Assembly: GCA_963745835.1 (NCBI GenBank)
Contig: CAVUZH010000003.1
Location: forward strand, 128,001-192,000
DNA length: 64,000 nt
Reading direction: 5' to 3'
From: an uncultured delta proteobacterium
GTDB taxonomy: Bacteria; Desulfobacterota; Binatia; UBA9968
Shown here: piece after piece, positions 1 through 64,000 of the stretch
Layout: every line of letters begins with the position of its first letter
Position numbering within the stretch: position 1 is the first letter of the stretch
Position numbers and translations under genes: made by a program
The notes under the pieces: generated by a model
What the model was told of the DNA's origin: nothing
The model's database searches: none
The model's input: the letters and a program-made list of their open reading frames with translations, nothing else

Positions 1-1
1 C

Positions 2-14187: not shown

Positions 14188-15279
14188 CTATTTACCACCT
14201 CTGATAAAGAGGCGTTTCATCAAGTCCTGCCACTCGGCGAAGTTCTTCTCGAACTCTTCCAACGAGTACTGATTCTCCAAGTAGTTCTTCTTGAATTTCT
14301 GATCGACGTCCATGTCATCTCTGGGAGAATTTAGTCCGCCCTTCATGACGACCTGCTGGCCCTCCTTCGAGTGGAGATAATCGAGAAATAGGATCGCCGC
14401 ATGCGGATGCGGAGATCTGGTCGTCATGGCGGAGGAGCCCACATTGGTCAGCACGGGTTCTAATGGACGCCATTCCACAGGCGCGCCTTTTCTTTTCGCC
14501 GTAACCATATTCGAATCGAATATCGTCGGAGAGAGCGGAACTTCACCCGAGACCACCTGGTTGGCAAGCGCAGCCGGAACGATGTTCTGGACCTTGACAT
14601 CCTGTTGGCTGAGTTTTTCTAGAAACTCACGACCCATCGTATTAACGATATGACCGACCCAACGCGGACCGCTTGAACCTCCGGCCATGGTCATCTTGCC
14701 TTTCCACTTGGGATCCAGGAGCGCGGCGTAATCTTTCGGTGCGTCGTTTGCGGGAACGGCTTTAGTGTTAAATCCGAGGCCAATGTACAATTCGCGATTT
14801 GCCCAGAAGAAAACACCGCCGTTCTTACCTTTCTCCTTTACATCGTCGCTGAAGGCGTTTATTTCGGGCGAAAAGTGTTCCTGCAAAAAGCCGCGCTTAT
14901 GCAAAATTTCGATACCGGTGCTGGTCTCGACAACGTCAGCGATATACCGACCCGAGGCATATTCTTCGATAACCCTCTTGAGGACGTCCCTGCCTTCGCT
15001 CCGCCATACACCGACTTTGATGAACGGGTATTTTTTTTCGAATTCCTGGGCAACGACGTCCATCCAGGTGTTAGAGTTATAGAACATTAACTGACCTTCT
15101 TTTTTGGCACCTTCGATCAGTTTCGCTTCTCGATCTTTGCCGCGGTACAACGCGATCTCAACGACGCTGGCGGCAAATACGGTACTGCAGTGGCCGACGA
15201 AGATTCCCATGGATAGCACCCAGGCCACCTTTATAGGCCAGGATCTCTGTTTCGGTAAATAACCAAACATTCGAATCAT
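14188..15279 (-). CDS. ABC extracellular solute-binding protein (Fe3+/polyamine-like cluster)
   Basis: EGAKKEGQLMFY, FEKKYPFI, LLDPKWKGK, PHPHAA.LFLDYLHSKEGQ; GGGAG RBS before ATG 15279. Confidence 0.9.
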   Translation of the reverse strand: MIRMFGYLPKQRSWPIKVAWVLSMGIFVGHCSTVFAASVVEIALYRGKDREAKLIEGAKKEGQLMFYNSNTWMDVVAQEFEKKYPFIKVGVWRSEGRDVLKRVIEEYASGRYIADVVETSTGIEILHKRGFLQEHFSPEINAFSDDVKEKGKNGGVFFWANRELYIGLGFNTKAVPANDAPKDYAALLDPKWKGKMTMAGGSSGPRWVGHIVNTMGREFLEKLSQQDVKVQNIVPAALANQVVSGEVPLSPTIFDSNMVTAKRKGAPVEWRPLEPVLTNVGSSAMTTRSPHPHAAILFLDYLHSKEGQQVVMKGGLNSPRDDMDVDQKFKKNYLENQYSLEEFEKNFAEWQDLMKRLFIRGGK

Positions 15280-15280
15280 T

Positions 15281-16150
15281 CTATTTGTCTCCCGTGATAT
15301 TTGTTTTGGTGCCATCACGCCACCACGACACGACGTCTTCATGCGTCGTGAATACGACGCCTTCGAACTGCTTGGCGTAAGCAATGAAATCGCTGAAGCT
15401 TTTCGCTCGGGATGGACGTCCTGTTACGTAATCATGAACGGTTAACGGCATCAGCACAGGCTCCTGTGCGCCGCGCTCATAGAGTGCATCGAACCCCGCC
15501 TTCAATCCACGTAAGAAAAAATCGGGAGTTGTGCAGTTCCAGGTGCTATAAGTATTGAACTGAAACCGTTGCGAGCAAAGAGCAACGTCGCTATACGCCG
15601 CGAAAGGGATTTCGACAAGCTGCCGGCCGTGTCCTTCAAGCAAGTAAGGCAAGTCGTCGTTCCACATGCTGCCGTCCCATTCGAAGTCGAAGTATTTCAG
15701 GATTAAATCGATGGTATTGTGGCTGGCAAAACAGGTCCGCCAGCCGCGCAGATGCTCCCCCAAGAGGTCTTCGAAAACGGTTACGGTTTTCTTCATCAGC
15801 TCGAGCTCTTTGGCGGCTGGCAAATTACACATCATTTCGTGCTCATAGGTGTGGCCTGCGATGGCGTTGCCGGCTTTCTTGACTGCCCGCGACACCTCAG
15901 GATATTTCTCGGCCGTGGCGCCGCAAATGAGCCAGGTTCCTTTGACTCCGTGCTTCTCCATAATTTCCAGCAGCCGCCAAGCGCCGCGGCGTCCGCCGTA
16001 TTGGCGCTCGCTGAAATCGAAACCATCAGGTTGGTCGTCGGGATAGAGCGAGCTCATCTCCTCGGATTGATGATGCGGGCTGATGATGATCGGCAGCCGT
16101 ACTCCATCCGGCCACCGCGGCAGTGAGTCAATGCGGCGTTCTTTCCACAT
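15281..16150 (-). CDS. Polysaccharide deacetylase (CE4)/PuuE-like hydrolase
   Basis: WPDG, QYGGRRGAWRLL, GHTYEH, GWR, DDLPY, TVHDYVTGRP; CAGGAG RBS before ATG 16150. Confidence 0.85.
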   Translation of the reverse strand: MWKERRIDSLPRWPDGVRLPIIISPHHQSEEMSSLYPDDQPDGFDFSERQYGGRRGAWRLLEIMEKHGVKGTWLICGATAEKYPEVSRAVKKAGNAIAGHTYEHEMMCNLPAAKELELMKKTVTVFEDLLGEHLRGWRTCFASHNTIDLILKYFDFEWDGSMWNDDLPYLLEGHGRQLVEIPFAAYSDVALCSQRFQFNTYSTWNCTTPDFFLRGLKAGFDALYERGAQEPVLMPLTVHDYVTGRPSRAKSFSDFIAYAKQFEGVVFTTHEDVVSWWRDGTKTNITGDK

Positions 16151-16152
16151 GG

Positions 16153-17001
16153 TTAGCTCCTGGATTTCGGCTGCAGACAACGCTTGGACCATTCGGCGAT
16201 CTCGCTGCATTTTGCAAACCAAAGCTCCTCATGGCCGCTTAAACGTTCGAGAAAATGTTTCAAAGCTCGCAGCGGGGCAGGGCGCCCGACGCCCCAGGTT
16301 TGTAGGCTCAAGATGAAGAGCCGGGAAGCTCGTTCGCTTTCCTCGTAAAGCATGTCGAACTCGTTATTCCATACATTGGTCAAGCCGTCGGAGCCGCCGC
16401 GTTGAGGATAGGGATAACCAATGAAGGTTTTGTCGGCAGTGCTGGTCGTGAATGGAATCTCAACCAATTGTCGGCCGTCGCAATCGAATAGATAGGGCAA
16501 ATCATCGTTCAACAGGCTGCTATCCCAGGTAAAACCGTTTTCCGCTAGAAGATCCAGAGTCTGCGGGCTGGTACGATAGTCTGGACAGCGCCAACCGATG
16601 ATTTTGACGCCCGCCACATTTTCCAAAGCTTGACTCGAGCGGCGCAGAACCGACTGTTCGCGCTCGGTGCTGTAGGCTCGCACCTTCTCAAAGTTATAAC
16701 TCATCCCCGCTAGTTCGTGGCCAGCCTCGTGAGCGGCGCGAACCGCTTGCGGGTACTTTTCCGCCGTTGCGCCACAGATGAAAAAAGTCGCTTTGATCTG
16801 GAAACGGTCGAGGAGTTCCAATATTTTCCATATGCCCGTCCGGCCACCATACTCCATCGTTCCCGATACCATGAAGTTCGGTCGATCACCGGGAAGAGGA
16901 GGGGCTCCTTCGCCAGACTGATGCTCAAACGTAAGAACAATCGGAAGACGTTTCCCCAAAGGCCATTTGATATCACTCAGAGAGCGCTGTTCTGTAGCCA
17001 A
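16153..17001 (-). CDS. CE4/PuuE-like protein with degenerate active site
   Basis: EYGGRTGIWKIL, KATFF, GWRCP, DDLPY, GRP retained, but conserved His positions read GMSYNF and LQTW; TTG start. Confidence 0.85.
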   Translation of the reverse strand: MATEQRSLSDIKWPLGKRLPIVLTFEHQSGEGAPPLPGDRPNFMVSGTMEYGGRTGIWKILELLDRFQIKATFFICGATAEKYPQAVRAAHEAGHELAGMSYNFEKVRAYSTEREQSVLRRSSQALENVAGVKIIGWRCPDYRTSPQTLDLLAENGFTWDSSLLNDDLPYLFDCDGRQLVEIPFTTSTADKTFIGYPYPQRGGSDGLTNVWNNEFDMLYEESERASRLFILSLQTWGVGRPAPLRALKHFLERLSGHEELWFAKCSEIAEWSKRCLQPKSRS

Positions 17002-17030
17002 TGTTGATCACCTAACCCACGTTTTTTGCT

Positions 17031-17059
17031 GCTATAACAACCGGTGTCAGCCTTGTCAA
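17031..17059 (-). promoter_or_regulatory. Sigma70-type promoter for the leftward CE4-CE4-SBP operon
   Basis: Minus strand TTGACA-N17-TATAGC with extended -10 TG, about 30 nt upstream of start 17001. Confidence 0.55.
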
Positions 17060-17179
17060 ACTTAACAGTTCATTGTTGATCTCGACTTACTTGCGACAGA
17101 AATACAATGCTGATATTTAAGCGAGACTGTTCCGCCGAATGCGCTGCGCGCAACCTACATAACGGGTTGAGGAAACATC

Positions 17180-18010
17180 ATGAGACCTAAGTCAATCGAA
17201 TGGCCAAACAAAGCGAAGATCGCCGTAAGTTTTTTTGTCGGACTCGAATCTTTTGTCAAGTATTCACAATACCGGGGAAGCGGCGACCAGGTCGATTATG
17301 CTTCGATAGCGTTTGGCGAATACGGCGGTAAGGTGGGTATCTGGAGAATTCTCGACGTTTTCACTAAACACAAGGTCAAGGGCACGATTGACACCAATGG
17401 GCTTGCGGCCGAGCGGTATCCCGAGGCGATCAAAGAACTCCATAGGGCGGGCCATGAAATCGTCGGTCATGGCTGGTCCAACGATGTTCCCCCTACGGCG
17501 CTGGACGATCAAGAGGAACGCCGGGTAATCAAGCGAACATTGGATACGATCTCATCAGTGACCGGCAAGCGTCCGGTTGGTTGGGTTAGCCCGGCTCATT
17601 TGATGACGGATAAGACGTTTGGATTTCTCGTCGATGAGGGGATCTTCTGGAGTGGCGATTTACCTGGAGATGATCTCCCATATCACGTTAATGTCGAGAG
17701 CCGCCCATTGGTGGTTATGCCGCGCCTCGATTACGCTAATGACCTAAGCCTCATTTTCCGGCCCAAGAACTCTCCGAGTTTGTTTTTCGAGTGTTTTAAG
17801 ACCGCGTTCGATCGGATGTATGCCGAAGGAAAGGATGGAAGTCCGAAGCTGATCGATGCTCTCATACATGCGCATATTGGCGGCCGGCCGAACTATATCG
17901 GCATGTACGAACAGTGTATCACCTATGCAAAGCAGTTCTCCGATGTCTGGTTCTGTACTAAAGGTGAGATCGCCCAGTGGTATCTGGATCGTTACGTGAA
18001 GAAGAGTTAG
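17180..18010 (+). CDS. CE4/PuuE-like hydrolase
   Basis: WPNKAKIAV, EYGGKVGIWRIL, GHEIVGHGW, PVGWVSP, DDLPY, IHAHIGGRP. Confidence 0.9.
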   Translation: MRPKSIEWPNKAKIAVSFFVGLESFVKYSQYRGSGDQVDYASIAFGEYGGKVGIWRILDVFTKHKVKGTIDTNGLAAERYPEAIKELHRAGHEIVGHGWSNDVPPTALDDQEERRVIKRTLDTISSVTGKRPVGWVSPAHLMTDKTFGFLVDEGIFWSGDLPGDDLPYHVNVESRPLVVMPRLDYANDLSLIFRPKNSPSLFFECFKTAFDRMYAEGKDGSPKLIDALIHAHIGGRPNYIGMYEQCITYAKQFSDVWFCTKGEIAQWYLDRYVKKS

Positions 18011-18124
18011 TCCGTCAATCGGTTATTGCTAATGAGGCCGAACGTTTCGTCTGCTCGCGCCATAGTCCTGGCAGCCACTGCAGTGCTTCTTGAGCCTGGC
18101 ATCACATCAGCAACGATCTAAACG

Positions 18125-19843
18125 ATGGTTTACGATCGTCTAGCCCGCTGGAACATTTCGAATTTCAATTTTCAACGGATGCTCTTCGTCGTCCTGCTGG
18201 CGATCCTCTGCTATTTGGTTCTACCACCGCTATTTTTCACGATTCAGTCGAGTCTCTATGTCGATCGCGGCTTCAACGAGGCGGAGCTATCGTTAAAAAA
18301 TTATACAGATTTCCTAACAACACCTGAGACCGGCGTCATGCTGGTGAATTCTATTTGGTTTGCGCTTGGGAGTTCACTGGTCGCCCTTACCGTAGGAACT
18401 CTTCTTGCCTGGGTGGTCGAGCGAACCGATACACCTTTCAAGAACCTAGCATACCTTTCGGCATTCACGTCATTTGCTATTCCCGGCATCGTTAAGGTTA
18501 TCGGCTGGATCATGCTCTTTGGTCCCGAGAAGGGTGTTATAAATGTTTGGTTGAAAGAACTCTTTGACCTGCAGTACTCCCCATTCAACATATTCACGCT
18601 TACCGGAATGATCCTCGTTGAAGGCGTGGTATGGGCACCGGTCGTGTTTTTGTTTATGGCGGCGCCATTTCGTTCGATGGACCCGTCATTAGAAGAGTCG
18701 GCGCTCATGTCTGGTGCAGGACCTGTGCAAACGTTCTATCATGTCACTCTTAAACTTGCGCTGCCCAGCGTACTCTCGGTGCTCCTTCTGACATTTGTCC
18801 GAGCCATGGAAGCATTCGAGATTCCTGTCCTCATCGGTATTCCCGGGCGCGTGTTGGTCCTGACGAGCGAAATTTATCTGAGACTCTCCAGCGGGCTTTT
18901 GCCGCAATATGGCATGGCGAGCGCTTACGGCGTCGTTCTAATCTTTTTGGTGTCGATCGGTCTCTATTTTTATTCGAGAGCCACTCGCGAATCGCAAAAG
19001 TTTTATACCATTACCGGTAAAGGGTTCAGGCCGCGAACCATCGAAATGGGAAAGTGGAGATACGTCACGACAGTGATTGTTTTCGTGCTGCCGACATTGC
19101 TTGGCTTGCCGTTGCTGATCCTGATGTGGACCTCGGTGCTTCCTTATTACATGGCACCGTCGCTAGACGCGCTTCGCCAGTTGACGACGATCAATTATTC
19201 GGCGGCGTTTCAGAGTTCCAATGTTTGGCTGGCTCTGAAAAACAGCCTGATCATCAGCCTAACGAGCGCCTCTCTGACCATGCTTCTGACCGCAGTGGTC
19301 GCGTGGGTTGTCGTCAGGAGCAATATTCCTGGCAAAGGCATTCTGGAGCACCTCACGTCGTTTACGCTCGCCTTTCCCAGTGTGGTTCTCGCGGTGGCGA
19401 TGTTGCTCACCTACCTTAAACTTCCAATCCCGGTGTATGGTACCATCTGGATTCTCGTCCTGGGCTACATCACGCGCTACATCCCATACGGGCTTCGCTA
19501 CTGCTCGCCTGGTCTGTTGCAGATCAATAAGGAGTTGGAAGAAAGCGCGGAGATGAGCGGGGCTCCTTGGCTTACTGTTTTTCGCCGCATCGTCGTCCCT
19601 TTGATGATGCCGTCAATATTTGCCGGATGGATCTATATCTTCTTGTTGAGCGTTCGAGAGCTCACGATGGCACTTTTGCTCTACAGTCCGGGGTCGCAAG
19701 TGATTTCGGTGACCATTTTCAAAATGTGGGACTTCGGTACTCTGGGCGAGCTGTCGGCATTTAGTGTATCCGTCAGTCTACTGCTCGTCGGCATGGCGAT
19801 CCTATTTCATAGATTGAGCAGACGTTACGGGTTACGTGTGTGA
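18125..19843 (+). CDS. ABC transporter permease, FbpB/iron-type with two TM domains
   Basis: Two EAA loops: LEESALMSGA and LEESAEMSGA. Confidence 0.93.
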   Translation: MVYDRLARWNISNFNFQRMLFVVLLAILCYLVLPPLFFTIQSSLYVDRGFNEAELSLKNYTDFLTTPETGVMLVNSIWFALGSSLVALTVGTLLAWVVERTDTPFKNLAYLSAFTSFAIPGIVKVIGWIMLFGPEKGVINVWLKELFDLQYSPFNIFTLTGMILVEGVVWAPVVFLFMAAPFRSMDPSLEESALMSGAGPVQTFYHVTLKLALPSVLSVLLLTFVRAMEAFEIPVLIGIPGRVLVLTSEIYLRLSSGLLPQYGMASAYGVVLIFLVSIGLYFYSRATRESQKFYTITGKGFRPRTIEMGKWRYVTTVIVFVLPTLLGLPLLILMWTSVLPYYMAPSLDALRQLTTINYSAAFQSSNVWLALKNSLIISLTSASLTMLLTAVVAWVVVRSNIPGKGILEHLTSFTLAFPSVVLAVAMLLTYLKLPIPVYGTIWILVLGYITRYIPYGLRYCSPGLLQINKELEESAEMSGAPWLTVFRRIVVPLMMPSIFAGWIYIFLLSVRELTMALLLYSPGSQVISVTIFKMWDFGTLGELSAFSVSVSLLLVGMAILFHRLSRRYGLRV

Positions 19844-19867
19844 TACTAAACGTCTAGAGCAGCGAAT

Positions 19868-20968
19868 ATGCTTCAGGTAAGGGATCTTTACAAAAGTTTT
19901 CCAACCGATTTGTCGGATGTGCGAGCCGTCGATTGTATCGGCTTTGAAGTCGCTCGCGGCAAATTCTTCAGCCTGCTCGGCCCCAGCGGTTGCGGAAAAA
20001 CTACAACACTGCGCTGCATCGCAGGGCTCGAACGGCCGGAGCAAGGTGAGATTGAAGTTGACGGGCACCTGGTCTTTTCGAAACAAGGCGTGTTCGTGCC
20101 CCCGTACCGTCGCGGTATCGGGATGGTTTTTCAGTCGTATGCCATCTGGCCGCATATGAACGTTTTCGAGAATGTCGCCTTTCCTTTGAAAATCGGTCAC
20201 AGGGCGTCCACCCGTGAAATAAAAGAACGGGTAGGAAAGGCGCTTCACCTCGTCCAGCTCGAGGAGCTCGGGCAGAGACCGGCGACCAACCTCAGCGGCG
20301 GACAACAACAAAGACTCGCGCTTGCAAGAGCGGTCGTGAGAGAGCCTAAACTCTTGCTCTTGGACGAACCGCTTAGCAACCTGGATGCAAAACTTCGCGA
20401 TGAAATGCGAGTGGAGTTGAAGCGAGTGCAACGGACCCTAGGTCTGACAACGATCTACGTAACCCATGACCAAACTGAGGCGCTGTCCATGTCGGACACA
20501 GTGGCCGTGATGAACAAAGGCAGGATCGTTCAGCTGGCCTCTCCCAAGGAAATCTATGAAAAACCGCTGAATAACTTCGTTGCCGATTTTATCGGATCCG
20601 CCAACATGATCGTCGGCAAGCTTACCGCATTAACCAGTGCTGAAGTCGGCCGGGTGGAGACAAAACACGGTTCACTGATTTGCGCCATTCCGCAACCTGC
20701 AAACATCAACATCGGCGGCGATGTTCTTGTGTCTGTCCGTCCAGAAGATATTCAGATGACGGTGGCTAGTGATCGATCAAAAACTTCCGAATGGGTCGGA
20801 ATCATCGACCAGGTGTCATTCCTCGGAGGTCTGATCGAGTATCAAATCGCAATTTCGGGAACTCGGATGCGCGCACGGGTTCACCCTTCCAACTTTTTCC
20901 AAGAGGGCGATTCTGTCCAGCTAACGTTCCAGCCGGGGCGATGCTGTACAGTCTCTACCGAAGACTAA
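19868..20968 (+). CDS. ABC transporter ATP-binding protein (FbpC/PotA type)
   Basis: GPSGCGKT, LSGGQQQR, LLLLDEPLSNLD, TOBE-like C-terminus. Confidence 0.95.
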   Translation: MLQVRDLYKSFPTDLSDVRAVDCIGFEVARGKFFSLLGPSGCGKTTTLRCIAGLERPEQGEIEVDGHLVFSKQGVFVPPYRRGIGMVFQSYAIWPHMNVFENVAFPLKIGHRASTREIKERVGKALHLVQLEELGQRPATNLSGGQQQRLALARAVVREPKLLLLDEPLSNLDAKLRDEMRVELKRVQRTLGLTTIYVTHDQTEALSMSDTVAVMNKGRIVQLASPKEIYEKPLNNFVADFIGSANMIVGKLTALTSAEVGRVETKHGSLICAIPQPANINIGGDVLVSVRPEDIQMTVASDRSKTSEWVGIIDQVSFLGGLIEYQIAISGTRMRARVHPSNFFQEGDSVQLTFQPGRCCTVSTED

Positions 20969-21006
20969 CGGACGCCATAAAATGTGCCGGCATCTAGGAG
21001 ATTACG

Positions 21007-21744: not shown

Positions 21745-21791
21745 TTCGCTAAGGGCGGAAATTAGCCTGACTAACAGAGGAATGTGACGAA

Positions 21792-57213: not shown

Positions 57214-57314
57214 GACTTGTCTTCAAGATTTGCTTGAATCCTTGACAGAAGAAGCGGTTGGTTGCTAGGGGATTGTTAAACGAATCAAGCAGAGTCTAGA
57301 GAGGAACCGGGTTT

Positions 57315-58160: not shown

Positions 58161-58188
58161 TTGCTTCTCTATCCGTACAGAGACAACT

Positions 58189-59049
58189 ATGAAGCCAGCT
58201 TCATTCGACTATTATTCTCCGGAATCACTAACCGACGCTTTACAGCTACTGGAGCGGCACCGCGATGCGGCAAGGCCGCTTGCTGGTGGACAAAGCCTGG
58301 TTCCGATGATGAATTTTCGTTTGGCTCGCCCGGCGCTTTTGATCGATTTGAATAATCTTCGTGAACTGAGTTTCCTCAAGGTTGAAGATGGCAAATTGCG
58401 TATCGGTGCCATGACCAGACAGCGTGCCTTGGAGCGATCCGCAGTGGTGGCCGCGGGTTGGCCACTCTTGCAAGAAGCAGCTCGGCACATTGGCCACATC
58501 CACATCCGTAATCGGGGCACCATAGGGGGAAGTATCGCTCACGCTTATCCGTCCGCGGAACTCCCTCTGGCAATGATGGCGCTGGACGCATCCTTCCTGT
58601 TGCGTAGCATGCAGGGAGAAAGAATTGTTCCCGCCAGGGATTTTTTCGTCGATGTAATGACAACCATCCTGGAGCCGAACGAGCTTTTGGTCGAGATACG
58701 CGTGCCTCAGGCAAAATCGCGAACTGGTTGGGGCTTTCAAGAAGTCAGTAGACGCCACGGAGATTTCGCGTTAGCAGCCGTGGCCAGCGTAATTTCGCTT
58801 CGGGAGGATCGGAGCATAGACAAAGTAAGATTAGTCTTTACCGGTGCAAAACCCCACCTCTCGAAGAAGACAGATTCTCTTATAGGACAAAAGTTCGACC
58901 GGACAATGTTTTCGGATATCGCCGCTACAGCCGCGGCGGAACTCGATACGGAATCCGATATTCACGCAAGCTCTGAATATAGACGGGAAGTAAGTCAGGT
59001 GCTGGCGCGCCGCGTTTTGGAAGAGGCAGCAGCTCGGGCTGCAATTTAA
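58189..59049 (+). CDS. Mo-hydroxylase FAD-binding subunit (CoxM-like)
   Basis: MKPASFDY, AGGQSL, IRNRGTIGGS, RRHGDFA, DIHAS..YR. Confidence 0.95.
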   Translation: MKPASFDYYSPESLTDALQLLERHRDAARPLAGGQSLVPMMNFRLARPALLIDLNNLRELSFLKVEDGKLRIGAMTRQRALERSAVVAAGWPLLQEAARHIGHIHIRNRGTIGGSIAHAYPSAELPLAMMALDASFLLRSMQGERIVPARDFFVDVMTTILEPNELLVEIRVPQAKSRTGWGFQEVSRRHGDFALAAVASVISLREDRSIDKVRLVFTGAKPHLSKKTDSLIGQKFDRTMFSDIAATAAAELDTESDIHASSEYRREVSQVLARRVLEEAAARAAI

Positions 59050-59085
59050 ATGTAACACCTGGAATGGAAGCGGAAGAGAAGCAAA

Positions 59086-59577
59086 ATGAGCAAGCGTGAA
59101 ATCAACGTTACAATCAACGGCCGTCAGTACCGAGGCGATGTGGAGCCTCGAAGACTTCTGACTGATTTCCTACGGGACGATCTTGGTCTTACGGGTACCC
59201 ATGTCGGCTGCGAACACGGCGTTTGCGGCGCATGCACTGTTCTTTTGGATAATCAACCAGTGCGCGCCTGTCTGATGTTCGCGGTGCAAGTAAACGGCGC
59301 CGAATTGAAGACAATCGAGGGGTTGGCTCCCACTCCGACCGCGCTCCATCCGCTGCAGGAAAAATTTTGGGAGCTTCACGGCCTGCAGTGCGGTTTTTGC
59401 ACTCCGGGAATTTTGCTGACCGCGGTAGCGCTCCTAGAAGAGATCCCTAACCCCAGTGAAGACGACATCCGAGAATGGATCAGCGGAAACTTGTGTCGCT
59501 GCACCGGTTACTACAACATCATCAAATCCATTCAGGAAGCAGCGAAGACCTTAAATACGAGCAAGTCAAATTTATAG
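59086..59577 (+). CDS. Mo-hydroxylase [2Fe-2S] small subunit (CoxS-like)
   Basis: GCEHGVCGAC, QCGFCTPG, NLCRCTGY. Confidence 0.95.
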   Translation: MSKREINVTINGRQYRGDVEPRRLLTDFLRDDLGLTGTHVGCEHGVCGACTVLLDNQPVRACLMFAVQVNGAELKTIEGLAPTPTALHPLQEKFWELHGLQCGFCTPGILLTAVALLEEIPNPSEDDIREWISGNLCRCTGYYNIIKSIQEAAKTLNTSKSNL

Positions 59578-59682
59578 CTGCGCTTTTCTGTTCCCTTTCC
59601 GTTTCAAGTTAGACGAATAACACTGGTACTTCGATCTAATGCCGATTTCCAAGGGCATTCCGAGTTAAGAGAGTTACAACTT

Positions 59683-61989
59683 GTGGCTTACATTGGTTCA
59701 AGAGTTAAACGTAAGGAAGATTTAAGGCTGCTTCGCGGCGTCGGTAAATACGTTGCCGATGTTCATCGTGTAGGCATGACGCATGCGACAATTCTCCGCA
59801 GCGCGTACGCGCATGCGCGGATTGTCAAAATAGATGCGGCTGCTGCCCTGAAGTGGCCTGGAGTCGTCGGTGTGCTTACCGCAAGCGACATAGCCGGAGT
59901 GAAAAGCATTCCGATGCGAACTGGCATAATTCCAGGAATGGAGCGCTCGCAGCAATTTCCCATAGCAGCAACCAAAGTGCGTTATGTGGGGGATCCGATA
60001 GCCGTCGTGGTGGCGGAAAATCGTTACATCGCCGAAGATGCCATGGAGCTTATCGACGTGGAGTACGAGGCGTTGCCTGCGGTGACCGATGCCCGGAGCA
60101 GCATGCAGGCAGAAGCACCGCGACTTCATGAGGCCGTGCCAAACAACATCCCGGCGAATTTCCAGGTCGATGTCGGCGATGTCGATAGCGCGTTCGCTAA
60201 GTGTGACCTCATCATCGAAGAGGAATTTTCGATCCAACGACATGCGGCTGTGCCGTTGGAAACGCGCGGCTTAGTAGCGGAGTTCGACGAAGGCCGCAGA
60301 ATCCTCACCATGTGGGGACCGACTAAAATGACGCACGCCAACTGGCGTATTCTCTCCGATCTCATCGGCCTGCCGCAGAGCTGTATCCATTTTATCGAGC
60401 CGGAAGTGGGCGGCGGCTTCGGTGCCCGGGGTGAATTCTATCCCGAAGACTTTCTGATCCCGTTCGCCGCCATGCATTTCCGAAGGCCGGTCTGTTGGAT
60501 CGAGGACCGCTCGGAAAATCTAAAAACGATGAATCAGTCGCGGCAGCAGAACCATCGGGTCAAGATCGGCGTCAAAAGCGACGGCACCATCATGGCCATG
60601 GATGCCGAGATTCTCTTCGATATGGGCGGGTACACCAGAACCCATGGCGGTACTCCGGCCATTGCCGCGTCTGCGATGCTGCGCGGTCCTTTCCGTATCA
60701 AAAACTTTCGCGCCAACGTTTTTTGCGTGCTGACCAACAAGACTCCGGTCGGCACCTACCGCAGTCCTGGACGCTATGAAGCGAACTTCGTACGAGAACG
60801 GCTGTTAGATATGGTTGCACGCCGACTCCACATGGACCCAGCGGATGTCCGACGACGTAACTTCATTAAGCACGATGAAATGCCTTATGACCACGGCCGG
60901 CATCCCTACCACAATATACGTTACGACAGCGGCGATTTTTCACTTCAGTTTGAACGTGCTCTGGAGCACATCGGTTATGAAAAGCTGCAGGACCGCTGCG
61001 CAGATGCTAAAAAAGGAGGCGGTGCCATCGGCATCGGCATCGGCTGTTTCGTCGAGACCAGCGGGAGGGGACCTTGGGAGTATGCTCGTGTCGAAGTGGA
61101 CAATGCCGGCAAGGTTGTTTTGTATTCGGGCTGCAATTCACTTGGTCAAGGAATCGCGACAGCCTTGAGCCAAATCGTCGCGGATGAACTGCAGGTTGCG
61201 ATTGAGGATGTACGGGTGATCCACGGTGACACCGCAAAGGTTCCGTACGGAAACGGTAGTAATGCTAGCCGTTCGATCGTGATGGCTGGCAGCGCTGCGG
61301 TGGGAGCGTCGCGTAAGGTTAAGGACAAGCTTTTGCGCCTGGCATCTATGGCGCTGGAAATCGACATCGGTGATCTTATTCTCCAAGATGCGCACGTTGT
61401 GGCACGCGGCGCGCCAGATCGATCTCTAAGCTTTGCCGCTATTGCGCGCTTGGCGTTGCCTGGTCCCGCTATGAAAAGCGGTATAACCCCGGGAATTTCT
61501 GAGGAGGATTTCTTCGCCACGGATCAGCGTCCATTTCCGTACGGTGTGCATGTCGCGGTGGTCGAAGTAGATCGTGAGACCGGAGAAATAAAGATTCTCG
61601 ACTATTTAGTAACCGAAGATGTCGGAAGAAAAATTAATCCCATGATTGTTGAGGGGCAAATGGCCGGTGGATTAGCACAGGGAATCGGCGGCGCTTTGTT
61701 GGAGGAGTTTGTCTACGCTGAAGATGGTCAGCCCTTAGCGACCAGTTTCATGGACTATTTGATGCCGACGGCGATGGAAATGCCCAAAGCGCAGCTGATC
61801 TCGACTGAAGATTTCCCTTCACCGCTCAACCCCCTGGGCGCCAAAGGCGCAGGCGAAGGAGGAATCACTGCGGTTGGCGCGGCCTTGGCTAATGCAGTTT
61901 CGAACGCTCTTGGTGTTGAGGTAACCAAGCTGCCCCTCAAACCGGACTACCTGTTGAATCTGATCAAAATTGCTAACGCCCATTCATAA
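59683..61989 (+). CDS. Xanthine dehydrogenase family molybdopterin-binding large subunit
   Basis: RKEDLRLL.G, VGGGFGARGE, TYRSPGRYE, GQG, GAKGAGE. Confidence 0.95.
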   Translation: MAYIGSRVKRKEDLRLLRGVGKYVADVHRVGMTHATILRSAYAHARIVKIDAAAALKWPGVVGVLTASDIAGVKSIPMRTGIIPGMERSQQFPIAATKVRYVGDPIAVVVAENRYIAEDAMELIDVEYEALPAVTDARSSMQAEAPRLHEAVPNNIPANFQVDVGDVDSAFAKCDLIIEEEFSIQRHAAVPLETRGLVAEFDEGRRILTMWGPTKMTHANWRILSDLIGLPQSCIHFIEPEVGGGFGARGEFYPEDFLIPFAAMHFRRPVCWIEDRSENLKTMNQSRQQNHRVKIGVKSDGTIMAMDAEILFDMGGYTRTHGGTPAIAASAMLRGPFRIKNFRANVFCVLTNKTPVGTYRSPGRYEANFVRERLLDMVARRLHMDPADVRRRNFIKHDEMPYDHGRHPYHNIRYDSGDFSLQFERALEHIGYEKLQDRCADAKKGGGAIGIGIGCFVETSGRGPWEYARVEVDNAGKVVLYSGCNSLGQGIATALSQIVADELQVAIEDVRVIHGDTAKVPYGNGSNASRSIVMAGSAAVGASRKVKDKLLRLASMALEIDIGDLILQDAHVVARGAPDRSLSFAAIARLALPGPAMKSGITPGISEEDFFATDQRPFPYGVHVAVVEVDRETGEIKILDYLVTEDVGRKINPMIVEGQMAGGLAQGIGGALLEEFVYAEDGQPLATSFMDYLMPTAMEMPKAQLISTEDFPSPLNPLGAKGAGEGGITAVGAALANAVSNALGVEVTKLPLKPDYLLNLIKIANAHS

Positions 61990-62220
61990 GCTCGATTACA
62001 AATCGATCCTCGAAGCGCTGATTGTTATAGGCTAGAACTAAAACCTTCACATGATGCATCGACAGTATAACCTTCATCGCGCTCAAAGATCATTGTGTAA
62101 CTATCCGGGTCACTGGCCGAATAAAACGCGAACTGGCAATCAAGTTCAGTTTTGTTCCTGACCTGACCCAACGATGAACGTTGCGAATAGCTCATAAGAG
62201 AAAGGTTTAGGAGGTAGGGT

Positions 62221-63330
62221 ATGGCTGTCTTGGATTATGTAAGAGTAAATCGAAAATTAACTCACATATGTTGTCGCTCGATAGTGATTCTATTGCTGCT
62301 ACTGCCGTATATTCAGCTAAGCAATGTACGAGCACAGGGCTTCAACGAGAAGGCAGTCGCAGACTTCTACAAAGGGAAAACGGTAACGCTTACCGTCGGT
62401 TTCGATCCGGGCGGAGGCTATGACATAGCCGCGCGCATCGTTGCCAAGCACCTCGGAAAACATATTCCCGGCAATCCTAATATAATTGTCTCGAACCGAC
62501 CGGGCGGAGGTAGCCTGGTAGCGGCAAATCTCGTCTACACGACATTGGCCCAAGACGGCACACAAGTTGTCGATTTCCACCCGCAGATGTTGCTTCAGCA
62601 AGCGCAGGGCCGCGAAGGTATTAAGTTCGACGGCTTGAAATACCATTGGCTCGCAAGCCTCAACGCCGGTAGCACCTCTTGCGCCGTGCATGTCGAGACC
62701 GGGATTAATCATCTCGATCAGATTAAAGGTGCCGCTGGAAAAGTAGTGACGATGGGTGTGGAGGCTCCGGGATCCGGTATTACTGATGGCACAGCAGTAA
62801 TCAGGGCGGCATTAGGTCTAAAATTCCGCATGATTTACGGATACAACGGGCAGCGTCCAATTGTGAATGCCGTCTTGAGTCGGGAGGTAGATGGAATCTG
62901 CTCCAGTTGGGATTCTTTCACTGCGACATTGAAAAATCTGTTTGAGCCGAAACAGTTAGTCCGCATGCTCGTGATTAACGAGCCTGAGGTTCCGAAGCAC
63001 CCGTGGCTCAAAGATGCTGTTGCCGCCCAGGCTGCCGCGCCGGACGACACGACGCGCAGGTTGCTCCGGGTCGTGGATGGACCTAGGGCAATTTCCTACC
63101 CATTTGCCGTCGGCCCTAAAGTTCCGAGAGATCGCGTTTTAGCATTACAGGAAGGGTTTGAGAAAGTGTTGAAGGATCAAACATTCATATCCGATTACGA
63201 AAAAACCGGACGAAGCTATGAACCAAAGAATTGGAAAGAAGTGACGGAAGTCGTGAATGATCTTCTGACAATGGATGACAAGACCAAGAAAGCTCTGGAG
63301 GAAGCCCTAAAGCGAAAGGAAGCGCCTTAA
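62221..63330 (+). CDS. Tripartite tricarboxylate transporter substrate-binding protein (TctC/Bug-like)
   Basis: FYKGK, GGGYD, IPGNP...NRPGGGS, DGT, GY; AGGAGG RBS. Confidence 0.9.
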   Translation: MAVLDYVRVNRKLTHICCRSIVILLLLLPYIQLSNVRAQGFNEKAVADFYKGKTVTLTVGFDPGGGYDIAARIVAKHLGKHIPGNPNIIVSNRPGGGSLVAANLVYTTLAQDGTQVVDFHPQMLLQQAQGREGIKFDGLKYHWLASLNAGSTSCAVHVETGINHLDQIKGAAGKVVTMGVEAPGSGITDGTAVIRAALGLKFRMIYGYNGQRPIVNAVLSREVDGICSSWDSFTATLKNLFEPKQLVRMLVINEPEVPKHPWLKDAVAAQAAAPDDTTRRLLRVVDGPRAISYPFAVGPKVPRDRVLALQEGFEKVLKDQTFISDYEKTGRSYEPKNWKEVTEVVNDLLTMDDKTKKALEEALKRKEAP

Positions 63331-63404
63331 GAAGATATCGGGCGCGACACACGGTCTTAGTTGAATGCAACGACACATGGTAAGTTCGATTTACCCCTAA
63401 CCTA

Positions 63405-64000
63405 ATGGCAGAGGCTTTTCTAGCGGGCCTTACCGCTGTCTTTACCTACCCTACATTCCCGTTGTTGCTGATCGGGATCTTGGCCGGGTTTGTAGTCGGT
63501 ATTCTTCCCGGCGTCGGGGGTGTTACCACGCTGGCACTCATGCTCCCTTTCACTTTTGATATGAAGCCGGTTGAGGCATTCGCGTTTCTCCTGGGGATGC
63601 TTGCCGTTACATCGACGACAGGAGATATCACTTCCATACTGTTTGGTATACCCGGGGAGTCTATTTCTGCCGCAACCATCGTCGACGGTCATCCGATGGC
63701 TAAGAATGGCGAAGCTGGGCGTGCCCTAGGCGCGGCGCTGATGAGCAGCTTGGTGGGAGCAATTATCGGAGCAGGAGTATTGGCGATAAGCATCCCGATT
63801 ATCACTCCGATTGTCTTGGCGTTTAAATCACCTGAGTTTTTTGCCCTCGCTTTGGTGGGGGTCACATTTGTCGCTGCTTTAAGTGGCACGAACAAGCTTA
63901 AAGGCATCGTCGTCGCCGGGCTCGGACTGCTACTCTCTGTGGTTGGACTGGATTCGCAAACCGGCGTGCCTCGTTACACGTTAGGGATGGTTGAATTCTG
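63405..64000 (+). CDS. tctA: Tripartite tricarboxylate transporter large permease, partial (runs off window end)
   Basis: Not in the ORF track because it has no stop; reads MAEAFLAG...GILPGVGG...ALMLPF...SILFGIPG....ATIVDGHPMAKNGEAGRALGA...PEFF...VGLD..TG.PRYT.G. Confidence 0.92.
   Translation, partial: MAEAFLAGLTAVFTYPTFPLLLIGILAGFVVGILPGVGGVTTLALMLPFTFDMKPVEAFAFLLGMLAVTSTTGDITSILFGIPGESISAATIVDGHPMAKNGEAGRALGAALMSSLVGAIIGAGVLAISIPIITPIVLAFKSPEFFALALVGVTFVAALSGTNKLKGIVVAGLGLLLSVVGLDSQTGVPRYTLGMVEF

Follow-up and report, generated by a model that had tools for sequence, protein, structure and literature searches.

The pic and nic pyridine-carboxylate clusters, as far as the accessible part of their description goes, combine a three-component Mo dehydrogenase, a multi-component oxygenase, an Amidohydro_2-type decarboxylase, an amidohydrolase and a racemase-fold maleate isomerase (10.1101/530550). 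PA0254/HudA, a pyrrole-2-carboxylate decarboxylase, has Asn at the position of the furan-specifying His of HmfF, according to the accessible part of a second report (PMC7976604). We analyzed a 64,000-nucleotide stretch (the window, G000:C3:128001-192000; positions below count from its first letter) of a 7.28-Mb Candidatus Binatia assembly. A sequence-only reading had described a catabolic locus here, plausibly a single undescribed funnel for substituted N-heterocycles.

The gene inventory of that reading, including ten binding proteins, was recovered in place by open reading frame (ORF), Pfam and NCBIfam analysis, and gene content and density bear out the catabolic locus. Positions 14188-64000 and their continuation form a real catabolic island of a soil Candidatus Binatia, very dense in breakdown-enzyme genes and at least 63 kb long, including the part past the right end of the window. 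The locus holds 3 Mo large subunits per 50 kb vs. ∼0.27 expected (39 in 7.28 Mb), and a sliding-window scan of the genome gave at least 3 in only 11 of 640 50-kb windows. Genes of the counted enzyme families number 24 at the locus, with a genome mean of 2.6 and 12 in the next best 50-kb window elsewhere, a count biased toward the island, since the window itself served to define the families. The earlier inventory did not mention the ABC permease and ATPase, the RidA-like, BNR, VOC and DUF3891 proteins, the FAD and 2Fe-2S subunits, and TctA, nor did it note the frameshift in an FAD subunit gene, the ∼150-bp repeat or the extension of the island beyond the window.

As the sequence-only reading had proposed, the island matched no described pathway: generic enzymes excepted, no island protein reached the curated NCBIfam cut-off of a known-pathway enzyme, whether of purine, pyridine, triazine or furan pathways (at most 518 vs. 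780 for XdhA, and at most 142 vs. about 425 for PuuE). Among the 45 proteins scanned with Pfam and NCBIfam, no ring-cleaving dioxygenase, deformylase, uricase, cyanuric acid hydrolase or allophanate hydrolase was detected. The island families share 30-45% identity with studied enzymes, from which we infer all reactions.

The enzyme and binding-protein families of the island are hugely multiplied throughout the genome. With the window proteins as phmmer queries against six-frame ORFs of the whole genome, ∼317 NMT1-type, 97 TctC-type and 83 SBP_bac_6 binding proteins were counted, together with ∼105 Amidohydro_2, 48 SDR, 39 Mo large subunit, 34 UbiD, 34 VOC, ∼21 PuuE-like, 20 Amdase-fold, 13 amidase and 8 GGT genes, and 10-11 split ThDP pairs. 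All 150 candidates scored (of 400) passed the Pfam NMT1 cut-off, and of the 317 NMT1 genes only 17 have one of 20 NMT1-type permease genes within 5 kb. By Pfam, the ten binding proteins in the window comprise one SBP_bac_6, six NMT1 and three TctC-like proteins, two of the latter being weak matches.

On the left, cassette 1a (minus strand) carries an SBP_bac_6 binding protein (14188-15384, Pfam) and two overlapping PuuE-like genes of polysaccharide-deacetylase fold (15281-16222 and 16153-17001, Polysacc_deac_1 in Pfam). These scored 119.9 and 136.5 with the NCBIfam PuuE model (cut-off 424.6), their closest solved structure is PuuE (3cl6, 124 bits), and the pair is present at 3 further genome sites. 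Cassette 1b (plus strand; Pfam and NCBIfam) consists of a third PuuE-like gene (17180-18010), a fused double ABC permease (18125-19843), an ABC ATPase (19868-20968), a class II aldolase-fold protein (21007-21744) and a PanE/ApbA-like reductase (21792-22781). Cassette 2, also on the plus strand, contains a TctC-like binding protein (23006-24031, Pfam), a small amidase-partner ORF (24115-24351, from the ORF list; core at about residues 21-78), an amidase-signature amidase (24348-25796, Pfam 409.6 bits) and a weak RidA/L-PSP-like ORF (26029-26415; RidA 21.6 bits, below cut-off). The amidase scored 319.9 with the NCBIfam AtzE family model (cut-off 425.75), and its Ser-Ser-Lys positions, as we take them to be, are invariant among its paralogues. 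Homologues of the small ORF lie directly upstream of the 3 closest amidase paralogues and in L155, and complex prediction for the amidase with the 59-aa partner gave a high score, the best control scoring nil. Cassette 3 (minus strand; Pfam and NCBIfam) holds an NMT1 binding protein (26580-27560) and a split ThDP decarboxylase (beta, 27659-28261; alpha, 28262-28783), with sulfopyruvate decarboxylase model scores of 124.4 vs. a cut-off of 221.5 (beta) and 107.2 vs. 147.95 (alpha). Divergent from it lies Mo large subunit 1 (29384-31759, plus strand; Pfam and NCBIfam), which has no neighboring FAD or FeS subunit gene. Among solved structures it comes closest to 4-hydroxybenzoyl-CoA reductase alpha (1rm6, 344 bits), and it contains GGGYG and GxGE(G), presumably the Mo-subunit motifs; all such presumed motifs checked were present in the Mo large subunits.

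From 32278 onward every gene lies on the plus strand, with gaps of 0-512 bp. The IclR gene (32278-33078; Pfam and NCBIfam), the only regulator found, is followed without gap by SDR1 (33079-33828) and SDR2 (33829-34605); a palindrome upstream (32201-32219) occurs once, and congener G010 has the SDR pair without IclR. Cassette 4 comprises a BNR/sortilin-like propeller protein (34807-35892, Pfam), an FAD subunit (35960-36824), Mo large subunit 2 (36797-39139), a 2Fe-2S subunit (39136-39612) and a UbiD decarboxylase (39632-41014); FAD and 2Fe-2S subunits accompany two of the three Mo enzymes in the window. A one-base frameshift near 36486 in the FAD gene may be an assembly error. The gene is intact in L001 and L002, and L021 carries a different frameshift elsewhere and a truncated UbiD. 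The cassette 4 UbiD shares the Asn of PA0254/HudA where HmfF has His, as far as the accessible text on these enzymes shows (PMC7976604). The same genome has a paralogous FAD-MoL-FeS-BNR block at C19:326419-331274.

Cassette 5 consists of an NMT1 binding protein (41242-42222, Pfam), a TctC-like binding protein of uncertain start (42122-43384, Pfam) and a Rieske/VanA_C oxygenase (43427-44458, Pfam), whose closest solved structures are SxtT (169 bits) and the methylxanthine N-demethylase NdmA (147 bits), with NdmB, of the same activity, also among them. Cassette 6 contains two Amdase/Asp-Glu-racemase-fold proteins (44970-45686 and 45989-46705; Pfam and NCBIfam), an NMT1 binding protein of uncertain start (46546-47694), a VOC/glyoxalase-fold protein (47719-48075) and a cytoplasmic GGT-family hydrolase (48158-49723). 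A lone NMT1 binding protein (49999-51015, Pfam) follows, then a ∼150-bp MITE/REP-like hairpin repeat (51017-51170, no strand assigned; fold -64.8 kcal/mol, z -4.9), present once in the window, in 111 more copies in the genome and in dozens per congener; one RNA-library contig omits 51013-51170. An Amidohydro_2 protein (51279-52319, Pfam) falls in the decarboxylase/hydratase branch and not among the ring-amide hydrolases, its closest solved structures being 8sm7 (114 bits), ACMSD (92) and LigW (84).

Cassette 7, with gaps of at most 106 bp, contains an NMT1 binding protein (52499-53446) and a split ThDP decarboxylase (beta, 53494-54111; alpha, 54160-54660), all by Pfam and NCBIfam, a second NMT1 binding protein (54695-55654), SDR3 (55712-56455) and SDR4 (56449-57213), DUF3891 (57315-58160), FAD (58189-59049) and 2Fe-2S (59086-59577) subunits, and Mo large subunit 3 (59683-61989), whose closest solved relative is 6-hydroxypseudooxynicotine dehydrogenase (559 bits). 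A TctC-like binding protein (62221-63330, Pfam) and TctA (63405 to the window end, Pfam) complete the window. The island runs ∼12.8 kb further, to about C3:204800, with TctB, DUF3891, an orphan Mo large subunit, Amidohydro_2, a second DUF3891, NMT1 with permease and ATPase, UbiD and NMT1.

Several small units proved to be conserved: the split ThDP decarboxylase with two SDRs, DUF3891 and the three-subunit Mo enzyme; UbiD with a Mo enzyme; the BNR protein with a Mo large subunit; two racemase-fold proteins with a binding protein, VOC and GGT; and the amidase with its 59-aa partner. Cassette 7 is the best-conserved cassette of the island. ThDP-alpha/beta, DUF3891 and FAD-FeS-MoL occur together in order-level relatives (G028 and G032), and the gene set recurs in many metagenome contigs (e.g., L108, L121, L123 and L138), with the recurrent order NMT1-ThDPb-ThDPa-NMT1-DUF3891-SDR-SDR-FAD-FeS-MoL. 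In 45 DUF3891-bearing metagenome loci of at least 5 kb, MoL was found in 25, FAD in 19, ThDP-beta in 18 and SDR in 13. In the same genome outside the window, a Mo large subunit lies within 6 kb of 4 of 8 ThDP-beta genes (∼0.5 expected) and 9 of 33 UbiD genes (∼2.2 expected), and 4 of 7 GGT genes are near VOC (∼0.4 expected). UbiD adjoins FAD-FeS-MoL in L005, L006, L007, L012 and L020, from several phyla.

We compared the locus with 7 congeners at the DNA level, with 40 relatives for the Rieske gene and with order-level genomes. Region 14184-22785 is one block with 90% DNA identity in one congener (G008/G003), and none of the six others yielded it; the 22.8-32.1 kb region was not found in any of the 7 at E ≤ 1e-50. 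Collinearity begins at ∼32093-32192 and extends over the right 32 kb in four congeners (G004, G007, G009 and, partly, G008), which says little either way because these are closely related, with 85-97% DNA identity. Distribution among the congeners differs between the left 18 kb and the right 32 kb. In G001/G009, region 32192-64000 is collinear at 92-96% identity, a GNAT/acyl-CoA synthetase gene stands upstream in place of Mo subunit 1, and two cassettes are added (a flavoprotein and another split ThDP enzyme). G002/G007 lack 39963-42184 (most of UbiD and one NMT1 gene), and G008 has an additional SDR behind the Rieske gene. Searches found no cassette 7 in G008 and no cassette 4 in G005, G006 or G010; the cassette 6 block stands alone amid other neighbors in G005 and G010, and with the thresholds applied nothing of 34-64 kb was kept in G006. 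Across genera and orders, orthologues share 69-84% identity, and in more distant relatives small blocks are the only surviving parts. Rieske orthologues occur in 6 of the 40 relatives, flanked in another genus by TctC-like genes only. The BNR and MoL pair is kept in order-level relatives (74 and 69% identity), where BNR is the only companion of the Mo subunit 2 orthologue (68-69%). Relatives of Mo subunits 2 and 3 are 1.35 Mb apart in the closed order-level genome G031; absence or non-adjacency weighs less in the many relatives that are fragmented assemblies of 200-880 contigs. The synteny expected across related genomes therefore holds for small cassettes and not for the island as one inherited unit; modules of this kind had been allowed for in a caveat of the sequence-only reading.

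The island is probably a series of about seven small, separately inherited uptake and enzyme cassettes, each with one or two exported solute-binding proteins and one to eight cytoplasmic enzymes, rather than one pathway. A competing explanation, which we consider unlikely, is that 32 to ∼77 kb forms one IclR-headed supra-operon for (hetero)aromatic, humic- or lignin-derived carboxylic acids, with the left 18 kb as unrelated accessory DNA. The single strand, tight packing, sole regulator in first place and four collinear congeners mean that several cassettes may be co-regulated; an IclR gene also lies near UbiD and Mo genes in L019 and L020, and UbiD, LigW/ACMSD-like Amidohydro_2, VanA_C-type Rieske, 4-hydroxybenzoyl-CoA-reductase-like Mo subunits and TctC/TTT carboxylate uptake are fitting families. 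However, congeners show single cassettes inserted, deleted or standing alone, cassettes 4 and 7 were each not found in some of them, relatives of the two Mo enzymes are far apart in G031, an exact 11-mer search found no 11-mer common to at least 3 intergenic regions and no common or repeated operator in the window, and gaps of 200-500 bp, one with the mobile repeat, likely divide the right run into about nine transcription units. Of the 30 bins that make up 44-64 kb, 24-30 are matched at ≥90% identity by contigs from four soil RNA libraries, a coverage that cannot show operons or co-expression and may include DNA carry-over.

The same separate inheritance, unlike left and right distributions and lack of a shared operator in that search speak against the single funnel, in which Mo ring hydroxylation, Rieske N-demethylation, PuuE-like ring-amide opening, amidase/GGT deamidation and decarboxylation would act in concert over the whole 50 kb. 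We regard it as highly improbable. The family palette is like that of the pic and nic clusters in their partly accessible description (10.1101/530550), the Rieske protein is near NdmA/NdmB and Mo subunit 3 near 6-hydroxypseudooxynicotine dehydrogenase, and the UbiD Asn matches PA0254/HudA in the accessible text (PMC7976604). However, the N-handling enzymes (three PuuE-like proteins and the amidase) reside in the left 18 kb, absent in 6 of 7 congeners, and four congeners retain much of the right part despite missing it; the XdhA, PuuE and AtzE models were unreached, and the ring-cleaving and hydrolytic enzymes searched for were absent from the 45 proteins. An N-heterocycle substrate is plausible for the Mo and UbiD cassette and the NdmA/SxtT-like Rieske cassette only, and the class is not specifically indicated for the island. 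That the region is decaying accessory DNA, made of partly pseudogenized duplicated cassettes of little present function, is hardly credible: the two frameshifts, the truncated UbiD of L021, the mobile repeat and heavy indel flux on the contig would fit, but 44 of 45 scanned genes have uninterrupted full-length frames and intact family domains (ORFs and Pfam), the sole frameshift of the window may be artifactual, the presumed Mo motifs and amidase positions are kept, orthologues persist across orders and RNA-library contigs cover 44-64 kb.

For the favored series of cassettes, family chemistry and conserved adjacency point to the following putative substrates and reactions. At 52.5-62 kb, SDRs would form a 2-oxo acid by oxidizing a hydroxy acid, decarboxylation by the split ComDE/Ppd-like ThDP enzyme would yield an aldehyde, and the CoxL-type Mo enzyme would oxidize that aldehyde to an acid, with DUF3891, an HD-domain-like metalloprotein, taking part at some step; cassette 7 reads more simply as this route than as an N-heterocycle route. 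At 34.8-41 kb, the three-subunit Mo enzyme may hydroxylate (or dehydroxylate) a (hetero)aromatic carboxylate that UbiD then decarboxylates, and at 41-44.5 kb a Rieske mono-oxygenase or demethylase would be served by its own binding proteins. Two racemase-fold proteins would act with the VOC protein and a cytoplasmic GGT-type amide hydrolase at 45-49.7 kb, a heteromeric amidase (large and 59-aa subunits) with the RidA-like protein at 23-26.4 kb, and a complete ABC importer with three PuuE-like (de)acylases or ring-amide hydrolases, the aldolase-fold protein and the reductase at 14-22.8 kb. The binding proteins would take up differing scarce organic acids in the periplasm and pass them to a few common membrane units (TctAB at the right edge, the one complete ABC system, at 18-21 kb, and the NMT1-type permeases, ∼20 across the genome), and each cassette would perform one short conversion.

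Every gene listed in the sequence-only reading of this locus was found in place by ORF listing and by Pfam and NCBIfam scans. The enzymes are three Mo large subunits of the xanthine dehydrogenase family (29384-31759, 36797-39139 and 59683-61989, here Mo subunits 1, 2 and 3), a Rieske/VanA_C oxygenase, a UbiD, three PuuE-like deacetylase-fold proteins, an amidase with a small upstream ORF, a GGT, an Amidohydro_2 protein, two Amdase/racemase-fold proteins (Amd1 and Amd2), two ThDP decarboxylases, each split into a beta and an alpha gene, a class II aldolase-fold protein, a PanE-like reductase and four SDRs. One IclR regulator and ten binding proteins (six NMT1, three TctC-like and one SBP_bac_6) accompany them. 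That reading did not mention the FAD and 2Fe-2S subunits of two of the Mo enzymes, a complete ABC importer, TctA, a BNR/sortilin-like protein, DUF3891, a VOC protein and a weak RidA-like ORF.

The island, which begins at 14188, extends 12.8 kb beyond the right end of the window, with genes for TctB, DUF3891, a Mo large subunit, Amidohydro_2, a further DUF3891, an NMT1 with permease and ATPase, UbiD and another NMT1. At its end, on the opposite strand, lie unrelated genes for a PP2C phosphatase, DotU/OmpA, ImpE (type VI secretion), a Ser/Thr kinase and an FHA protein (C3:205420-211997, that is 13420-19997 of L098, the continuation of the contig). Upstream of the island, positions 1-9827 carry detoxification-type genes (Zn-ADH, MOSC, pirin, methyltransferase, GST and a DinB/mycothiol-transferase-like protein) and an ABC exporter on the minus strand. 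The 1.7 kb at 12477-14187 hold a sole ORF of 117 aa without a family match, and 12920-13817 is 83-84% identical to a site ∼100 kb from the IclR block in the congener G001. Across the whole window Rfam at gathering thresholds gave no matches, and a tRNA scan found no genes.

The sequence-only reading had proposed a single funnel for N-heterocycles from 14188 to 64000, while suspecting that several modules might be present. Seven congeners were searched; identity among the close relatives over 32-64 kb was 85-97% at the DNA level, and many relatives are fragmented MAGs, in which “not found” is not “absent”. Nothing stated here depends on the unpublished relative G015. The segment at 14184-22785 (ABC system, three PuuE-like proteins, aldolase and reductase) was detected in one of the seven, G008, with 90% identity. 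The next segment, 22.8-32.1 kb (TctC, amidase pair, RidA-like ORF, NMT1, ThDP pair 1 and Mo subunit 1), was found in none of the seven at E≤1e-50, and the left 18 kb is missing from six of them. The G+C content of 26000-30000 is 0.48-0.49, compared with 0.51-0.58 elsewhere, and this stretch falls in the part found in no congener. Collinearity with relatives begins at ∼32.1 kb, just upstream of IclR; at this border the neighbor in the congeners G001 and G009 is a GNAT/ADP-forming acyl-CoA synthetase gene.

Within 32-64 kb, G009 has an additional FAD_binding_2 flavoprotein and a split ThDP enzyme with a receptor fragment, G007 lacks 39963-42184 (most of UbiD and one receptor), and G008 has an additional SDR after the Rieske gene. 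Cassette 7 (52499-61989) was not found in G008, with the same caveat of a fragmented MAG. G005 and G010 retain only the Amd1-Amd2-NMT1-VOC-GGT block (cassette 6, 44970-49723), which stands alone there among other neighbors; G010 also has the SDR1-SDR2 pair, with no IclR. In G006 nothing of 34-64 kb was detected at the thresholds used. A Rieske orthologue was found in 6 of 40 relatives, namely five of the seven congeners and one genome of another genus, where it is flanked by TctC-like genes only. In the closed genome of the order-level relative G031, the Mo subunit 2 orthologue lies 1.35 Mb away from the relative of Mo subunit 3. The parts of the island did not co-occur and stay together in relatives as would those of a one-pathway locus.

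These comparisons argue against a single unit: close relatives differ by whole cassettes. The catabolic, undescribed and modular character suspected from the sequence was upheld, and the single N-heterocycle funnel was abandoned in view of the separate inheritance of the cassettes. An assembly chimera at the 32.2-kb breakpoint was considered and rejected from contig composition and the comparison with G008: the contig around the window, of 1.45 Mb, has an even composition, and G008 has 14.2-22.8 kb as such a block too. The region is best read as a patchwork of cassettes that combine receptors with enzymes, of a kind multiplied genome-wide in this lineage.

The genome assembly measures 7.28 Mb in 25 contigs, with 97% completeness and 9% contamination, and the window spans C3:128001-192000 in it. 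Window proteins were searched against all six-frame ORFs of the genome, which gives approximate copy numbers. Every window family was greatly multiplied: ∼317 NMT1-type, ∼97 TctC-like and ∼83 SBP_bac_6 binding proteins, ∼105 Amidohydro_2, ∼48 SDR, ∼39 Mo large subunits, ∼34 each of UbiD and VOC, ∼21 PuuE-like, ∼20 Amdase-fold, ∼13 amidases, 10-11 split ThDP pairs and ∼8 GGT. For Pfam NMT1 alone at least 150 genes exceeded the cut-off (150 of the 150 scored candidates, from 400 candidates). Of the 36 Mo large subunits outside the window, ∼22 lack a FAD or FeS gene at a distance of up to 6 kb. Comparable mosaics exist elsewhere in the genome; one of them, at 713000-735500 of contig C13, contains three consecutive split ThDP pairs with many receptors, one Mo large subunit, two UbiD and two Rieske genes.

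Clustering of these genes at the locus exceeds chance, subject to the choice of families. The 50 kb of the island hold three Mo large subunits vs. 0.27 expected, and only 11 of 640 sliding 50-kb windows, several of them being this region, contain at least three. Enzyme genes of the counted families number 24 at the locus, compared with a genome mean of 2.6 and 12 in the best window elsewhere, a density that overstates how exceptional the locus is because the families were defined from this window.

The receptors far outnumber their transporters. Against 317 NMT1 receptor genes we found 20 NMT1-type permeases, and 17 of the 317 receptors lie within 5 kb of a permease, so that ∼95% have none at that distance; in total, ∼500 solute-binding-protein genes face 20 NMT1-type permeases and 13 TctA. 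By eye, NMT1_a, b, d, e and f, TctC and orf369 have signal-peptide-like N-termini, and on this basis the alternative that the NMT1 proteins are THI5-like enzymes was rejected. Receptors that far exceed and lie apart from cognate permeases, and that are exported, conform to an orphan binding-protein architecture. The orphan “Bug”/TctC binding proteins of Bordetella and Cupriavidus, and ABC importers sharing several binding proteins, are many-receptor, few-transporter systems. As in the Bug/TctC systems, binding-protein genes here far exceed membrane units and adjoin catabolic enzyme genes. In contrast to them, the expansion is mainly of the NMT1/SsuA type, with TctC and SBP_bac_6 in addition and ∼500 genes in one genome, and the receptor genes are interspersed among enzyme cassettes, each moving as a unit.

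No window protein reached the curated NCBIfam cut-off of a purine, pyridine, triazine, furan, CO or coenzyme-M enzyme, and the curated models that were passed are generic only (GGT, the UbiD family and two SDR subfamilies). For a purine route (xanthine dehydrogenase, PuuE allantoinase and the GGT-family oxamate amidohydrolase HpxW), the XdhA model NF043082 gave 518, 464 and 419 vs. a cut-off of 780, and the PuuE model TIGR03212 gave 120, 137 and 142 vs. 424.6. For aerobic CO dehydrogenase (form I CoxL), TIGR02416 scored at most 506 vs. 991. AY[RK], which we take to be the CoxL active-site loop motif, had no pattern match in the three Mo large subunits, a negative that weighs little.

The pic (picolinate) cluster of Proteobacteria contains a three-subunit Mo dehydrogenase together with an oxygenase, a decarboxylase of the Amidohydro_2 type, an amide hydrolase and racemase-fold proteins resembling maleate isomerase (10.1101/530550). 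The island shares this palette with pic and with the nic (nicotinate) cluster. Unlike pic and nic, it has no 2,5-dihydroxypyridine dioxygenase and no N-formylmaleamate deformylase, and none of 45 proteins carries a domain of the pic/nic downstream enzymes. Its components also sit in separate cassettes with separate histories, and its racemase-fold proteins reach only 55 bits with maleate isomerase; for Amd1 the nearest solved structures, ahead of maleate isomerase, are a hypothetical protein (72 bits) and arylmalonate decarboxylase (65 bits). The pic and furan (hmf) clusters overlap with the island in part of the palette, and their defining downstream enzymes are missing here (10.1101/530550; PMC8091172).

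A heteroaromatic carboxylate substrate, N-containing or not, would fit most plausibly in cassette 4 (34807-41014), which encodes BNR, FAD, Mo subunit 2, 2Fe-2S and UbiD. Elsewhere in the genome UbiD adjoins a three-subunit Mo enzyme at 9 of 33 genes (∼2.2 expected), and the combination is also seen among the UbiD loci nearest to this one outside the congeners, which come from several phyla (L005, L006, L007, L012 and L020); an IclR gene is near the UbiD and Mo locus in L019 and L020. Among solved structures, 4-hydroxybenzoyl-CoA reductase alpha comes closest to Mo subunits 1 and 2 (344 and 417 bits), and 6h6v/6h6x to the UbiD (290 bits); 6h6v is presumably HmfF, although its structure title does not say so. 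A His of HmfF specifies furan, and the pyrrole-2-carboxylate enzyme has Asn there (PMC7976604). The window UbiD has Asn aligned to this His of chain 6h6v, with moderate alignment confidence at that position.

The furan cluster, hmfABCDE with hmfFG, likewise places a three-subunit Mo enzyme beside a UbiD decarboxylase (PMC8091172). In contrast to it, the window has no CoA ligase (HmfD) and no hydrolase/hydratase (HmfE), no HmfG/UbiX-like gene is nearby (the genome's two Flavoprotein-family genes are both on contig C16), the furan-specifying His of HmfF is replaced by Asn, and Mo subunit 2 is closest to 4-hydroxybenzoyl-CoA reductase.

Orthologues of Mo subunit 2 in order-level genomes (68-69% identical) keep only the BNR gene alongside (74% identical); their other neighbors, such as an AAA-ATPase/PD-(D/E)XK protein and a PLP decarboxylase, are unrelated. 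The cytoplasmic BNR/sortilin-like propeller protein and Mo subunit 2 (34807-39139) recur as a two-gene unit across the order, at L090/L091 in G035, L097 in G037 and L084 in G031. No FAD or FeS subunit genes were found near the unit in those relatives, and we know of no role for a BNR protein as partner of a Mo large subunit. The FAD subunit gene of cassette 4 (35960-36824) has one extra base at ∼36486 relative to the related loci L001, L002 and L021, which puts its C-terminal domain in another frame and may be an assembly error or a real lesion. A different frameshift is present in the same gene of L021.

Cassette 7 (52499-61989) encodes NMT1, ThDP beta, ThDP alpha, NMT1, SDR3, SDR4, DUF3891 and a FAD, 2Fe-2S and Mo subunit 3 enzyme. 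The order FAD-FeS-MoL-ThDPalpha-ThDPbeta-DUF3891 (MoL, Mo large subunit) is found in the order-level relatives G028 and G032. We examined 80 metagenome loci with a DUF3891 relative, 45 of which, at least 5 kb long, were used for neighbor counts: a Mo large subunit occurred in 25 of the 45, FAD in 19, ThDP-beta in 18 and SDR in 13. The order NMT1-ThDPb-ThDPa-NMT1-DUF3891-SDR-SDR-FAD-FeS-MoL was recurrent (e.g., L108, L110, L121, L123, L131, L138 and L141), in contigs that are not independent because they are mostly close kin, with DUF3891 66-86% identical. Elsewhere in the genome, 4 of 8 ThDP-beta genes have a Mo large subunit no more than 6 kb away (∼0.5 expected), and in the window both ThDP pairs sit within ∼5 kb of one.

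Each of the two ThDP enzymes is encoded by a pair of neighboring genes (166-205 aa), one for the N-terminal and one for the C-terminal ThDP domain, and the best NCBIfam matches of both pairs are the models of sulfopyruvate decarboxylase (ComDE) and phosphonopyruvate decarboxylase. Scores fell short of the equivalog level (beta, 124.4 and 100.9 vs. 221.5; alpha, 107.2 and 98.0 vs. 147.95). ComDE and phosphonopyruvate decarboxylase show the same division into small subunits, alpha (PYR) and beta (PP). Unlike ComDE, the ThDP pair here goes with a Mo oxidoreductase, two SDRs and DUF3891 rather than with coenzyme M, phosphonate or Xsc genes, and the genome has 10-11 such split pairs. Mo enzyme 3 shares the FAD, 2Fe-2S and Mo layout of CoxL-type (“form II”) enzymes, compared here with 6-hydroxypseudooxynicotine dehydrogenase, quinoline 2-oxidoreductase and archaeal glyceraldehyde dehydrogenase. 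The best models for its subunits are those of glyceraldehyde dehydrogenase (692, 274 and 225 bits vs. cut-offs of 790, 350 and 290), and the nearest solved structure to Mo subunit 3 is 7dqx, 6-hydroxypseudooxynicotine dehydrogenase (559 bits). No description of a ThDP decarboxylase and DUF3891 as partners of these CoxL-type enzymes was found in the literature searched, and a word search found DUF3891 mentioned in none of its papers.

An alignment of 21 DUF3891 sequences showed H19, H29, H51-D52, H111 and D179 to be invariant and H75 nearly so, which conforms to the H...HD...D metal-ligand motif of the HD-domain metalloprotein superfamily. An ESM Atlas search returned DUF3891 clusters only. With the predicted model (pLDDT 86.5), Foldseek gave no match at E≤0.001 in the PDB. 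In a wide structural search nearly all of the top-50 rows were HD-superfamily chains at low Z; the best match (Z 6.6, rmsd 3.2, 126 residues aligned) is below a trustworthy level, and PhnZ gave Z 5.5. An HD fold is only suggestive because these Z values are low. A DUF3891 subgroup, 50-54% identical, pairs with UbiD instead. Among the DUF3891 copies surveyed (window 57315-58160; L098 1558-2397 and 6210-7052; loci L100-L179), one subgroup accompanies ThDP and Mo enzymes, a second accompanies UbiD, and a few copies are found beside Rieske oxygenases.

In the simplest scheme for cassette 7, based on family chemistry, an SDR would form a 2-oxo acid, from which the ThDP enzyme would make an aldehyde that the Mo enzyme would turn into the acid. 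A bolder proposal combines (i) cassette 7 as an undescribed route for small organosulfonates/organophosphonates or another hydroxy/oxo-acid class; (ii) DUF3891 as a new binuclear hydrolase or an oxygenase like PhnZ, of the PhnZ/TmpB class; and (iii) Binatia as specialist scavengers with hundreds of receptor-plus-enzyme cassettes. It invokes the two NMT1/SsuA-like receptors, the ComDE/Ppd-like ThDP enzyme, the two SDRs, DUF3891 with its six-residue His/Asp set and the CoxL-type Mo oxidoreductase; substrates under the organosulfonate/organophosphonate variant may be sulfolactate-, dihydroxypropanesulfonate- or phosphonopyruvate-type compounds. We consider this reading improbable.

The amidase is predicted to bind its small partner. 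The core of the small ORF (residues 21-71) has homologues of 59-67 aa that are 43-49% identical. Their reading frames run into the beginning of the amidase gene at the three closest paralogues and at one metagenome locus; a ∼59-aa partner is conserved at 4 of 13 amidase loci of the genome and has no Pfam family match. Complex prediction scored 0.88 in three runs, compared with 0.00 for the best of three controls, with a partner pLDDT of 78-80 and at least 78% of contacts agreeing between runs. In calibration the mark was reached by 116 of 157 solved pairs and 2 of 215 mismatches, a rate only roughly valid with custom alignments. Since structures of the AtzE-AtzG and GatCA complexes exist, the high score may stem from resemblance to them; with this proviso, the models support binding of the 59-aa partner. 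The pair resembles AtzE-AtzG 1-carboxybiuret hydrolase and GatCA in joining an amidase-signature enzyme to a translationally coupled ∼59-aa partner. It differs from AtzE-AtzG in that the AtzE model TIGR02715 gives 319.9 vs. 425.75 and a RidA-like ORF comes after. Despite the partner predicted to bind the amidase, the triazine/biuret branch (AtzD, AtzE-AtzG, AtzH and AtzF) was not recovered: AtzD, AtzF and AtzH are lacking in the window, with no cyanuric acid hydrolase or allophanate hydrolase equivalog.

In cassette 6 the GGT passes the generic model (377.4 vs. 357.85), has no signal peptide by eye and is nearest among solved proteins to a “cephalosporin acylase” (310 bits); 4 of the 7 other GGT genes of the genome are near a VOC gene. 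For the remaining enzymes the nearest solved relatives are SxtT (169 bits) and NdmA (147 bits) for the Rieske protein, ACMSD/LigW-type decarboxylases for Amidohydro_2 and PuuE (124 bits) for the PuuE-like proteins. Judged by such scores, the nearest solved relatives are all distant.

No operator shared between cassettes was detected, in that no 11-mer is common to three or more intergenic regions, and a palindrome upstream of IclR at 32201 is unique. A promoter/terminator consensus scan of 44-64 kb found fewer sites than shuffles (8 vs. 14.8 and 11 vs. 22.6) and for that reason is useless for operon borders. Fourteen soil/rhizosphere DNA runs contained at least half of the words of 52.4-62 kb, and six soil RNA runs contained part of this stretch. 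In four RNA libraries, contigs covered 29, 24, 28 and 30 of the 30 bins of 44-64 kb at ≥90% identity, with DNA carry-over possible; because the contigs are short they reveal neither operons nor levels, nor co-expression. Cassette 7 occurs widely among soil Binatia and also turns up in soil RNA libraries. A MITE/REP-like hairpin repeat of ∼150 bp at 51017-51170 has 111 further copies in the genome and dozens per congener. In L001 a copy is placed elsewhere, between the two racemase-fold genes, and one RNA-library contig omits exactly the 51017-51170 element.

Binatia are abundant, uncultured soil and sediment bacteria. One phylum-wide paper describes them mainly as methylotrophs and alkane degraders, and its text is without the words ABC transporter, amidohydrolase, UbiD, molybd-, carbon monoxide and heterocycl- (PMC8262859). 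If the region is read as a patchwork of cassettes, function and inheritance reside in the small cassette and not in the 50-kb island, which guides what to clone; a sensible unit to test is one receptor with its two to eight neighbors. Three conserved, unstudied partnerships stand out: DUF3891 with ThDP and Mo enzymes, BNR with a Mo large subunit, and the 59-aa partner with the amidase. The window and the genome together shift the emphasis for Binatia toward hundreds of receptor-plus-enzyme cassettes for organic acids.
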